Notes under the pieces: model-generated
What the model saw: only the letters and a program-made list of their open reading frames with translations
What the model was told of the DNA's origin: nothing
The model's database searches: none
Shown here: positions 1,438 to 5,976 of the stretch, piece after piece
How positions within the stretch are numbered: the first letter of the stretch is position 1
Layout: every line of letters begins with the position of its first letter
Program-made: the position numbers and the translations under genes
Source: a virus
Taxonomy: Duplodnaviria > Heunggongvirae > Uroviricota > Caudoviricetes
Virus record (IMG/VR): IMGVR_UViG_2713896787_000006
DNA: 5,976 nucleotides
Direction: 5' to 3' (one strand)

Positions 1438-1626
1438 TTATCCAGCCGGTATTTCGTTATTCAGGTTCAGCGATACTTTTTTTAACGGGAGGCATTCACC
1501 GGGGATTTTTTGTTCGTCCCTTACCTGAATGCAGGATGACTTACTGTCATAAATTCCGGTAATCACATTTTGTGGCTCACCCGTTATAAGAAAAACGGTC
1601 ATCACCAGTGCAAATGCTGAAGTCAC
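1438..1626 (-). CDS. Small hypothetical early protein (about 62 aa with GTG start; 54 aa if ATG at 1602 is used), YdaE-like position
   Basis: Track ORF 1438..1626. GTG at 1626-1624 overlaps the TGA stop of the upstream gene (GTGA, translational coupling) and has GGAG 4-5 nt upstream; the alternative ATG at 1602 has a weak SD. Product not recognised. Confidence 0.4.
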   Translation of the reverse strand: MTSAFALVMTVFLITGEPQNVITGIYDSKSSCIQVRDEQKIPGECLPLKKVSLNLNNEIPAG

Positions 1627-1811
1627 TGCTGTTCTCCGATAATACCAAGTTCAAGAAGGGCAATTCTGGAAAGTATGGAATTATCATTGAGAAGATAAGG
1701 TTCATATTTTCTCATCTTAATGGCATCTTCCGTAAACTCCCGGTTACTGAGCAGAACACCAATATCAAAACAACCTTCAGACGTATTAACGTTTGGTAAT
1801 AACGTTTCCAT
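1623..1811 (-). CDS. Small hypothetical early protein (61 aa, METLLPNVNTSEGCFDIGVLL...), Kil-like position
   Basis: ATG at 1811-1809 preceded by GAGGA with a 7-nt spacer; stop TGA at 1625-1623. The track's longer version (to 1916) begins with GTG and lacks an RBS. The Kil assignment is positional only. Confidence 0.5.
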   Translation of the reverse strand: METLLPNVNTSEGCFDIGVLLSNREFTEDAIKMRKYEPYLLNDNSILSRIALLELGIIGEQQ

Positions 1812-1828
1812 TATCGCGTCCTCAACAA

Positions 1829-1976
1829 TGAATTTTGTGATGCGGTGCCTGGTGCCTCCAGGTGACGTTAACCAGTTAACAATTAACGCCGGATACAGAG
1901 AATCCACCCATAACACTGTTTTTGGTTTTAACTGTTCCGCGTGCGCTCAGCCGCATTCACCGCATCACAAAATTCA
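1829..1976. repeat. Perfect 19-bp inverted repeat pair (TGAATTTTGTGATGCGGTG at 1829-1847; CACCGCATCACAAAATTCA at 1958-1976) flanking a 110-bp segment rich in internal symmetry
   Basis: Both arms checked base by base. Interior contains GTTAACCAGTTAAC, CCTGGTGCCTCCAGG and tandem CCGCAT(T)CAC. Left arm ends 17 nt upstream of the start codon of the 1623..1811 gene. Confidence 0.9.
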
Positions 1977-2063
1977 CTTTAAAAAGGGCGGCAGAGCAGT
2001 CACGGAGTAAAACTGATACCGCCAAACGTCACCAGAAAATTGATAACAGAGGGCGTTGCAGCG

Positions 2064-2100
2064 GGGTTGTCACTTAAGCGTATGGTCAACCTGACAACCC
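2064..2100. repeat. Stem-loop: 9-bp perfect stem GGGTTGTCA / TGACAACCC with 19-nt loop, within a GC-rich hairpin cluster
   Basis: Direct inspection. Further hairpins at 2112-2130 (CGGGG/CCCCG), 2143-2158 (CCGCG/CGCGG) and 2246-2261 (CCCTGA/TCAGGG, 4-nt loop). No convincing ORF on either strand between 1917 and 2363. Confidence 0.7.
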
Positions 2101-2375
2101 GGTGTCCTCAACGGGGAAGGAATAACCCCGCCATACTTACCGCCGCGCCATTTCGCGGAGTGCCACAACCGGAAGCGCACGTTCGAAGAAATCTAACGAC
2201 AAGCCTTCTAAGGGAAAGAGCTTCGCCGTACGCTTTCGCGTTATGCCCTGACTTTTCAGGGAAATATCCTTTCAGTAAACTGTCAGTACCGGATTCTTAT
2301 CCGTGTCCGGCGCACGACCACACGTGACAGCGTGTTGGTCTCCATTTTTAACCCAGAACCTCAATGGAGGATAAA

Positions 2376-3570: not shown

Positions 3571-3612
3571 AGGATACCCATGGGTATTTAAAAAGTAAAT
3601 ACCCATGGGTAA
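3571..3612 (-). promoter_or_regulatory. PL-like leftward promoter with two palindromic operator sites (OL1 TACCCATGGGTA 3575-3586; OL2 TACCCATGGGTA 3600-3611)
   Basis: Two copies of the perfect palindrome TACCCATGGGTA spaced 25 bp centre to centre (the first is a perfect 14-mer ATACCCATGGGTAT). On the minus strand: -35 TTTACT (3599-3594), 17-nt spacer, -10 TATCCT (3576-3571). OL1 overlaps the spacer and -10; OL2 abuts the -35. Confidence 0.55.
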
Positions 3613-3653: not shown

Positions 3654-4073
3654 TTATGATGCGTTTTGTGCTTTCTTTTTACGGATTTCTTCGTAGATCA
3701 TATTGTAATACTGTTTTTTCTCTTCAAGAGTTTTTAATAAGTTATCCGCTTCACTTTCTGGCAGTTCGTCTAAGAGATCTAAAAAAATACGTTGTCGTGG
3801 CGTTAGAACCCTTGTTTCATAATTGGAGGCTGTGTTCGTTGATGATGAAACGATACCATCCATCCATCCCCGGGGTAACCCAAAGGACTCTTCTATAATC
3901 TCCACCATATCATCAGCGATCCGTTTTTTTCCTTTTTTCCCCTCTGGGTACAACATTCTTGATACATAAGAAGGCTCGCGACCGATCTTTCTGGCCACGT
4001 TAACCGCTTTACCATCGCATTTCTCATCACGAATTTTGATGAGTTGTTGTCGTCTAAATTCATATTTGTCCAT
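3654..4073 (-). CDS. Prophage repressor-like HTH DNA-binding protein (139 aa), CI-like position, too short for a LexA/S24 autocleavage domain
   Basis: ATG at 4073-4071 (MDKYEFRRQQLIKIRDE...). Probable HTH around GKAVNVARKIGREPSYVSRML. Divergent from the Cro-like gene, with operators at both ends. The track's TTG start at 4115 adds an implausible Cys-rich extension. Positional analogue of RacR/CI; I do not recognise the sequence itself. Confidence 0.75.
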   Translation of the reverse strand: MDKYEFRRQQLIKIRDEKCDGKAVNVARKIGREPSYVSRMLYPEGKKGKKRIADDMVEIIEESFGLPRGWMDGIVSSSTNTASNYETRVLTPRQRIFLDLLDELPESEADNLLKTLEEKKQYYNMIYEEIRKKKAQNAS

Positions 4074-4079
4074 AGGTAA

Positions 4080-4148
4080 ATAATAGATGCGATTACCGCA
4101 AGGTAAACAACCCAAGGGTATTGACTTTTGTTTACCTGTGGGTATTCT
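4080..4148. promoter_or_regulatory. Divergent immunity control region: three operator-like TACC-N4-GGTA sites (4094-4105, 4109-4120 imperfect, 4133-4144), PR-like promoter, and a possible PRM-like promoter for leaderless repressor mRNA
   Basis: PR: -35 TTGACT (4121-4126), 16-nt spacer, -10 TATTCT (4143-4148); site 4133-4144 overlaps the spacer and -10, site 4109-4120 abuts the -35. This mirrors PL. Minus strand: TATTAT at 4085-4080 lies 6 nt upstream of the repressor ATG, with a weak -35. SD AAGGAG at 4162-4167 precedes the Cro-like ATG at 4173. Confidence 0.5.
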
Positions 4149-4172
4149 TGCTGTGTTTACTAAGGAGTAGCT

Positions 4173-4934: not shown

Positions 4935-5976
4935 ATGGCTAACGCCTGGCTCAGATTATGGCATGACATGCCAAATGACCCTAAGTGGCGAACAATTGCC
5001 AGGGTGTCAGGGCAGCCAATTGCAACAGTGATGGCAGTGTATATCCACCTCCTGGTGAGCGCGTCACGAAATGTCACGCGAGGTCACATTGATGTCACGA
5101 CAGAAGATTTGGCAAGTGCGCTCGACGTGACAGAAGAGGTAATTGATTCAATTTTGCAGACGATGCAGGGGCGGGTACTTGATGGTGATTTAATCACTGG
5201 ATGGGAAAAACGCCAGGTGCTGAAAGAGGACAACGGCAATATTTCGCAAACCGCAAAATCTCCGGCAGAGCGCAAGAGGGCGCAGCGAGAGAGGGAAAGA
5301 AAGCGGGAACAAAATGGCGATTGTCACGGCGCGTCACGAAATGTCACGCACATGTCACGACGAGTCACGACAGATAAAGATACAGATAAAGATACAGATC
5401 AAGAAGATCAAAACACTATGGTCCATGGCGTAAAAAACGCCACGAACCAGGCAGGGGATGTTCAGACCGTCAATCCTGGTCAGCCAGCAGGCACGACACC
5501 GGAAGCCGATTCAGCGTATGCGCTGAAAGCCGATTCGGGCGCTGTGCAGCAGGTGATGACCGCAAGGCAGGAGCAATCACACCAACTTCAGCAGCCTGAA
5601 GCCGATTCCGCCATTCAGCGGGAAGCCGATCGGGTAGTCCCGGAAAACACCGGGCAGCCTGTGGGACGAGTGGATTATCCGGATGTGTTCGAACAGGTCT
5701 GGCGGGAATACCCGTTGCGTGCTGGGGCAAACCCGAAGAAATCCGCTTTCAGTGCCTGGAAGGCCAGATTACGCGAGGGGGTGCCACCAGAGGCCATACT
5801 GGATGGTGTGAGGCGTTACGCAAGATACCTGGCGGCTACCGGGAAAACGGGAACGGAATTTGTTCAGCGAGCGACGACGTTTTTTGGGCCGGACCGGAAT
5901 TTTGAAAACCCCTGGTTGCTCCCGGTAAGCGGCACGAACAACCAGCGTTGTGTGAATCATATTTCTGAACCGGATA
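4935..5976 (+). CDS. Partial CDS (3' end beyond window): phage replication initiator (O-like), ori iterons embedded, C-terminal region resembling the conserved phage replication-protein C-terminus (FEQVWREYP...KKSAFSAWKARL)
   Basis: ATG at 4935 with SD GAGGTGA; stop-free frame to the window end (347 codons: MANAWLRLWHDMPNDPKWRTIARVSGQPIATVMAVYIHLL...). Absent from the track because it has no in-window stop. All antisense track ORFs here are shorter and junk-like. Confidence 0.8.
   Translation, partial: MANAWLRLWHDMPNDPKWRTIARVSGQPIATVMAVYIHLLVSASRNVTRGHIDVTTEDLASALDVTEEVIDSILQTMQGRVLDGDLITGWEKRQVLKEDNGNISQTAKSPAERKRAQRERERKREQNGDCHGASRNVTHMSRRVTTDKDTDKDTDQEDQNTMVHGVKNATNQAGDVQTVNPGQPAGTTPEADSAYALKADSGAVQQVMTARQEQSHQLQQPEADSAIQREADRVVPENTGQPVGRVDYPDVFEQVWREYPLRAGANPKKSAFSAWKARLREGVPPEAILDGVRRYARYLAATGKTGTEFVQRATTFFGPDRNFENPWLLPVSGTNNQRCVNHISEPD
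5059..5100 (+). repeat. Iteron cluster 1: four (T)GTCACG repeats at 5063, 5073, 5083 (GTCACA) and 5094, 10-11 bp apart, plus an inverted copy CGTGAC at 5126-5131
   Basis: Direct inspection; a 21-bp block GCGCGTCACGAAATGTCACGC (5059-5079) is identical to 5329-5349. Confidence 0.55.
5321..5405 (+). repeat. Iteron cluster 2 (five GTCACG repeats at 5323, 5333, 5343, 5354, 5364) followed by three tandem 12-bp A-rich repeats ACAGATAAAGAT (5370-5405); candidate replication origin
   Basis: Direct inspection; repeats in helical phase (10-11 bp); resembles the lambda arrangement of iterons plus an AT-rich region inside gene O. The repeats encode ASRNVT... and TDKDTDKDTDQED in the protein. Confidence 0.5.

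Follow-up and report, generated by a model that had tools for sequence, protein, structure and literature searches.

Introduction

The small RNA DicF of Escherichia coli K-12 is encoded in the dicBF operon of the cryptic Qin prophage (RF00039) and is excised from a polycistronic transcript, with RNase III giving rise to a 190-nt species and RNase E to a 53-nt species (PMC10448788). In addition, a 72-nt form of DicF arises from RNase III cutting of the full-length RNA (PMC9438474). Primer extension and Northern blots have revealed dicBp as the only promoter of this transcript (PMC10448788). Further systems that invite comparison are the leader of the ban gene in phages P1 and P7, which harbours a “dicF-like region”, the stand-alone small RNA STnc100 (reported as PasD-related) and the put element of phage HK022. 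To our knowledge, the upstream part of the DicF precursor has always been treated as spacer.

The stretch considered here spans positions 1812-2363 of a 5,976-nucleotide window from the Caudoviricetes record IMGVR_UViG_2713896787_000006. A preliminary description had singled it out as non-coding, GC-rich and hairpin-rich DNA beside a “Kil-like” gene, and had offered a structured RNA, a long regulatory leader or a decayed gene as its possible nature. The analysis presented here leaves little doubt that, on its minus strand, it carries the dicF locus of a Qin-like lambdoid prophage whose early-left operon is of the dicBF type. This locus itself is already known and encodes an ordinary, textbook prophage small RNA.

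Identity and gene order of the locus

The covariance-model search proposed for this stretch identifies the RNA at once. DicF (RF00039) was found at 2037..1986 on the minus strand over model positions 1-52, scoring 76.7 bits where the gathering score is 48 (Rfam scan, E = 3.4e-16), and all dicF columns of alignment A1 are identical to the experimentally defined dicF of K-12 (b1574). By the Rfam match and the K-12 identity, the 53-nt DicF occupies 1986..2038 (minus strand), where the seed region is followed by a terminator hairpin at 2023..1986. This terminator, read directly off the sequence as a GGCGG...CCGCC hairpin with UUUUU, is succeeded by a U-tract that extends to 1981; a simple terminator scan did not call it, and its stem has internal loops. 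The start of dicB is located 174 nt 3' of DicF on the same strand (1623..1823, minus strand, with the ribosome-binding site GAGGA at 1823..1819, the ATG at 1811 and the end at 1623). The supposed Kil-like gene is dicB, according to both Pfam (PF05358, 129.5 bits, positions 1-62 of 62) and PGAP, which names the product DicB in a near-identical O157 locus; the dicBF operon had gone unrecognised at first reading.

On the minus strand, a DicA-like repressor gene (4115..3654) is followed by a DUF1391/YdfA-like gene, a gene for 216 amino acids, the non-coding block, dicF, dicB, a ydfD-like gene and an exonuclease gene. The same order is given by PGAP in a 99.5%-identical O157 chromosome, and DUF1391 was also recovered in a Pfam search of the window's open reading frames (ORFs). 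Among 5426 complete E. coli genomes, 4720 harbour the stretch, which has a median copy number of 2 and reaches ten copies at most.

The locus shares with K-12 Qin about 500 nt of near-identical DNA, beginning at ~2316 and extending past dicF as far as the first half of dicB, as well as the order of repressor, DUF1391 gene, non-coding block, dicF, dicB and ydfD-like gene. In contrast, the second half of dicB has diverged, the genes flanking the shared block are unrelated, and Qin has ydfB and ydfC whereas the window has the 216-aa gene (phrog_2151) and a convergent plus-strand gene for 69 amino acids (phrog_4274). The right-hand end of the stretch (2317..2363), which is not shared with Qin, constitutes the upstream region and ribosome-binding site of this 69-aa gene (2376-2585). 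The gene displays a strong GGAGG ribosome-binding site and a full-length match to phrog_4274, and is called hypothetical by PGAP. It is convergent with the 216-aa gene and antisense to the early-left transcript; a convincing plus-strand promoter was not seen.

Several other features of the window were recorded. A perfect palindrome (TACCCATGGGTATTTA...TAAATACCCATGGGTA) at 3575-3611 separates the repressor gene from the first early-left gene and accounts for an Rfam match to “mir-2041”. Related half-sites are found at ~4107-4150 between the repressor and a cro-like gene, and the two sites probably represent the left and right operators. Clusters of GTCACG / ATGTCACG repeats inside the replication-protein gene (5061-5110 and 5321-5370) look like origin iterons of the lambdoid type. 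The exonuclease gene contains a run of N (1201-1289), which is either masked or unresolved.

Structured and non-coding character of the stretch

Direct reading recovers the four hairpins previously described at exactly the coordinates claimed, namely gggttgtca / tgacaaccc with a 9-bp stem (2064-2072 / 2092-2100), cgggg / ccccg (2112-2116 / 2126-2130), ccgcg / cgcgg (2143-2147 / 2154-2158) and ccctga / tcaggg (2246-2251 / 2256-2261). The reported enrichment in GC is real and modest (0.47-0.54 over 1801-2400 vs 0.385-0.44 on either side). A credible ORF is likewise absent, as PGAP calls none in the equivalent stretch of the 99.5%-identical O157 chromosome, and neither the 95-aa plus-strand ORF at 2040-2327 nor any other local ORF has a Pfam match. 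Folding is better than in shuffled controls, with z-scores of -3.08 (1980-2330, minus strand) and -4.66 (entire stretch, plus strand). Thus, the options of a structured RNA and of a long leader were both right in kind, since the stretch is a processing precursor as well as the long leader of the downstream gene. The earlier interpretation stands as regards a non-coding, structured RNA, while it missed the strand and the name of the RNA, and its option of a decayed gene fails on evidence given below.

Probable processing of the DicF precursor

The hairpins noticed earlier make up the upstream portion of the 190-nt DicF precursor described in the literature. In the following account, RNase dependence and the lengths of the RNA species are taken from the cited papers, while the present analysis supplies the identification of DicF and DicB together with gene order, conservation and helices.

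A repressor-controlled promoter beyond the DicA-like repressor gene (4115..3654) would drive the minus-strand transcript, which would cross the DUF1391 and 216-aa genes and continue as ~770 nt of non-coding RNA. RNase III would cut a hairpin at 2235..2173 and leave a 5'-monophosphate end at ~2175 as the start of 190-nt DicF, an RNA that would open with a closed domain, here termed module C (2169..2055). RNase E would cut the single-stranded linker just 3' of module C to give 53-nt DicF (2038..1986), the 3' end of which would be set by its own terminator hairpin and U-tract. RNA reading through this terminator would fold a 20-bp stem (1977..1958 / 1847..1828), where a cut by RNase III would yield 72-nt DicF and separate the small RNA from the dicB message. 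DicF together with Hfq then pairs with ftsZ and other host mRNAs, while septation is blocked by DicB.

The long hairpin at 2173..2235 (minus strand), a likely RNase III substrate, is formed by AAGCGUACG (2235..2227) with CGUGCGCUU (2181..2173). Its fold includes a further stem, CGAAG (2225..2221) with CUUCG (2188..2184), and a variable tip. The core stem stays paired in 15 distinct strand combinations, and two stem positions have changed on both sides (A-U/G-C and G-C/U-A); covariation of the stem is seen when two diverged locus types are compared. With a length of 190 nt up to the 3' end of DicF, the 5' end falls at ~2175, within the 3' strand of this hairpin, and the RNase III cut is placed there on account of the 190-nt length and the published RNase III dependence (PMC10448788). 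Similarly, 72 nt from the 5' end of DicF leads to ~1966, inside the 5' strand of the 20-bp stem. The linker GCCCUCUGUUAUCAAU (2039..2054, minus strand) is single-stranded, and the RNase E cut would fall between AUCAA and UUUUCUGG, which is the 5' end of 53-nt DicF; this position follows from the 5' end of K-12 dicF, for which RNase E dependence is published (PMC10448788). The sites were mapped in K-12 and not in this prophage, and the exact cut positions in the window are estimates placed by RNA length.

An internal promoter that drives dicF or dicB apart from the early-left promoter is improbable. According to PMC10448788, one previous study had proposed a promoter 5' of dicB, and our scan returned two weak promoter-like sites, yet both are on the plus strand, while no minus-strand site was obtained across 1500-2700. 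Moreover, primer extension and Northern blots have left dicBp as the sole promoter (PMC10448788).

The leader of dicB and the upstream conserved module

The dicB message begins with a structured 5' leader, module A (1828..1977, minus strand), closed by the 20-bp stem of GUGAAUUUUGUGAUGCGGUG (1977..1958) with CACCGCAUCACAAAAUUCAU (1847..1828), which is the likely downstream RNase III site. The minus strand of 1800-1985 folds with -69.4 kcal/mol (z = -5.75), and the closing stem has undergone only wobble-preserving changes. As the long stem extends towards the dicB ribosome-binding site in this fold, it may couple RNase III cutting to dicB translation, and it may also mask this site.

Module A aligns over the whole 206-position model of STnc100 (RF02076), including the closing stem and the inner hairpins. 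The match (1988..1779, minus strand; 40.1 bits, E = 2.9e-6) is below the gathering score of 47, and the leader is therefore called STnc100-like, being akin to the family in shape, and not a member of it. A similar element also precedes terB in P7 and D6. The systems differ in that STnc100 is a stand-alone small RNA and PasD is encoded in the late region near the Q gene, whereas the element of the window is the 5' leader of dicB.

At the opposite end of the block, an upstream conserved leader, module D (2246..2316, minus strand), contains CCCUGA-AAAG-UCAGGG (2261..2246) and CCGG...CCGG (2310..2289). It marks the 5' limit of the block common to K-12 Qin, where conservation begins at ~2316, and in Stx phages a portion of it (2275-2333) is found by itself. 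In the consensus folds of modules A and D changes are few and mostly one-sided, and their structures are therefore not proven by comparison; this weak covariation reflects the narrow diversity of the relatives (Escherichia, Salmonella and Klebsiella phages).

Fold and comparative support of module C

Module C (2055..2169, minus strand) is a closed multi-helix domain of about 115 bases that forms the 5' body of 190-nt DicF and is captured by the covariance model R1. Its closing helix P1 pairs GUUGUGGC (2169..2162) with GCUGCAAC (2062..2055) and encloses the hairpins H1 (2158..2154 / 2147..2143), H2 (2130..2126 / 2116..2112), which is variable, and H3 (2100..2092 / 2072..2064), all on the minus strand. 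A possible pseudoknot joins GUAUGG in the junction (2136..2131) to CCAUAC in the loop of H3 (2085..2080). It consists of six perfectly complementary and nearly invariant bases with one compensatory event, in which U-A, U.G and C-G are seen and C-A never.

Model R1, built from 17 module C copies, recovered 143 full-length copies among the collected loci. In alignment A3, 95.2% of cells hold standard pairs, as against 33-57% when the partners are slid, and the comparison for compensatory changes that had been proposed earlier yields eight pairs changed on both sides. The covariation score is 0.116 vs 0.079 in shuffles, the observed value being reached by none of 500. Among 81 distinct module C sequences, 93.9% of cells pair and compensatory changes are present, although all these pair figures overstate the independent support, as the structure was derived from the same, closely related sequences. 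The lowest-energy fold of the 193-nt species departs from the comparative structure, with the 3' strand of H1 pairing with the terminator instead.

Rfam returned no matches in 2030-2340 even at E <= 10, and antisense RNAs of the C4 and IsrK types are thus unmatched there. ARAGORN detected no tRNA or tmRNA in the window. A description of the module C fold was not found in the literature; older work on dicF and P1 may mention the homology, though probably not the fold.

It is highly improbable that the hairpins act as DNA, be it as operator, origin, single-strand initiation site or recombination site. An inverted repeat folds as well on one DNA strand as on the other, and the modules do behave as recombination units shuffled between phages. 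Nevertheless, the closing helix P1 relies on U.G and G.U pairs, present in 32 and 36, respectively, of 55 distinct rows, which would be C-A mismatches on the other strand, and the module C fold therefore forms only in minus-strand RNA. Pairing between loop and junction, along with a hairpin of variable length that compensates, is an RNA signature, and transcription and processing of the stretch are established (PMC10448788).

A remnant of a protein-coding gene, such as a decayed ydfC-like gene or a small annotated ORF, is scarcely credible either. Several phage records (hits H61-H101) annotate a “hypothetical protein” over module C DNA, and the minus-strand ORF at 2070-2180 matches phrog_8854 (E = 3e-14), being the sole local ORF with a PHROG match. 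However, variable sites in this ORF are spread over the three codon positions (26/21/22), with no third-position bias. The frame persists in only 22 of 55 distinct copies, and in the window it is closely preceded by several stops. Lengths vary in steps other than multiples of three, segments of 36-42 and 62 nt being mostly out of frame with each other. Pfam offers no family for any local ORF, and ydfC of K-12 is upstream of the conserved block and unrelated to it. Most likely, phrog_8854 comprises ORF calls over a conserved RNA.

Distribution of module C and its optional interior

According to BLAST, module C spreads independently of its surroundings; it is present at 88-89% identity in the phages Ayreon, cdtI and 2H10 and in Stx2c phages and at 82% in Salmonella phage F1055, where it is followed by different small RNA bodies, and at 77-82% in the ban leader of P1/P7. 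Relatives among plasmids and phages were restricted to phages of Escherichia, Salmonella and Klebsiella, which limits the power of the covariation analysis. A gapped DNA pattern scan of genome contigs gave matches that were nearly all due to chance in GC-rich genomes, the real ones being confined to E. albertii, E. ruysiae and E. coli.

The ban leader of P1/P7 has module C with compensating changes ~45 nt after the C1-controlled ban promoter and, like the window, a short single-stranded stretch and a terminator after it. It differs in that the RNA body following module C is unrelated to DicF and in that tRNAs, tci/ter genes and ban are located downstream instead of dicB.

The interior of module C is absent from 32 of 129 viral loci with the junction of DicF terminator and leader. 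These retain the closing stem, capped by a loop of 4-5 nt, the common type being GGUUGUG-AAUA-ACAAC; in locus L268, the capped stem reads GUUGUGGC-AAUCA-GCUACAAC. The examples carry the same DicA-type repressor and ydfA gene, and an N-like protein was not detected in them by a weak search with a single query family. As these loci lack it, the interior is dispensable for the operon. The safest reading is that the closing stem is a conserved processing element beside the RNase E site, where it may guide the cut, and that the interior is an optional insert; the strongly conserved loops of the interior still need explaining under this reading.

Following module C or its closing stem, the position of DicF is taken by at least eight unrelated small RNA bodies, each consisting of a single-stranded stretch with a terminator (loci L004 2450-2510, L251 2620-2710, L105, L125, L066, L050, L003 2440-2495 and L255), none of them reaching the Rfam cut-off for DicF. 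Such diversity at one position is suggestive of a hot spot for the exchange of regulatory RNAs among prophages. In the Ayreon, cdtI and F1055 types, the terminator of the small RNA is followed by an element closed by a 17-bp stem (ACAAAACAGAGAAGAGCA ... UGUUCUUCUCUGUUUUGU; L254 ~2676-2770, also L004 and L251), in the place of the dicB leader of the window. Genes for the antisense RNAs isrK and C4 are adjacent to each other in L105 (1171-1359), L066 (4732-4920) and L004 (4896-5084); in L105 and L066 the two follow the small RNA at the DicF position by a few hundred bases, and in L004 (Ayreon) they are on the other side of the immunity region.

Some records deserve caution. In phage vB_Apl-pPE4 (L252 2590-2760), the small RNA at the DicF position is duplicated in tandem, and both the closing helix and hairpin 1 of module C are missing their 5' strands. 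This record (PP818812.1, “Actinobacillus phage vB_Apl-pPE4”) and MT713136.1 (“Aeromonas phage AP1”, 98.7% identity over 237 nt) have DicF regions of the E. coli type, and their host labels or assemblies look doubtful.

Does module C have a function of its own?

That module C has a function of its own is possible rather than probable. We tentatively consider its ~95-nt interior, with three hairpins and the loop-junction pseudoknot, as an undescribed class of phage RNA with its own function, common to lambdoid early-left leaders and the ban leaders of P1/P7. In that case, candidate roles would include binding of a host factor, tuning of the yield or stability of the small RNA that follows, and release as a stable RNA. 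“Long DicF” would then be a two-part RNA and the locus a cassette site, in which a fixed structured head precedes interchangeable small RNA bodies.

Specific forms of such a function are somewhat unlikely. Module C might work by itself as a put-like cis antiterminator, as a riboswitch-like control that adjusts transcription past the DicF terminator into dicB and the recombination genes, or as a stable RNA of ~137 nt that binds a host factor and is freed by the cuts of RNase III and RNase E. Lambdoid phages and P1/P7 have nearly the same junction and loop sequences, in contrast to H2, which is free to vary and shows compensating changes. In every context seen, module C is downstream of a repressor-controlled early promoter, and a hairpin with a U-run follows within ~50-100 nt of it in 46 distinct downstream variants; it is also absent from Rfam. 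Against this stands the loss of the interior in 32 of 129 loci, including siblings with the same DicA-type repressor and ydfA. Furthermore, module C is not preferentially present where an N-like antiterminator is missing, its distance to the terminator varies, and the locus types share no alternative pairing with the terminator.

Comparison with put is instructive in this regard. The put element of HK022 is, like module C, a structured RNA in a lambdoid early transcript, after a repressor-controlled promoter and before terminators. It differs in consisting of two stem-loops of ~70 nt, a two-stem V-shaped RNA (PMC9378689) and not a closed junction, and in having no sequence or structure match to module C, which is optional among siblings. 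Model R1 returned no matches in the PL/PR regions of HK022 (21000-29000 and 27000-33000). An antiterminator of this kind, required for transcription past early terminators, would also be expected in every phage of the type without N, yet 32 of the 129 loci have no module C interior.

Two candidates were rejected. The put-like antiterminator was set aside in view of the missing HK022 match, the missing anticorrelation with N and the optional nature of the element. The riboswitch-like switch, in which GGCGG of module C would compete for CCGCC of the terminator, was discarded because terminators of the F1055 and P1 types lack that sequence.

Significance

The dicF locus needs no new category, and the initial call of a non-coding, structured stretch was correct. 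What may be new in the locus is module C, which has a conserved and comparatively supported fold, occurs in phage P1 as well, is missing from Rfam and is labelled “hypothetical protein” in several phage records. Describing it would clean up annotation and provide researchers working on DicF with a testable element.
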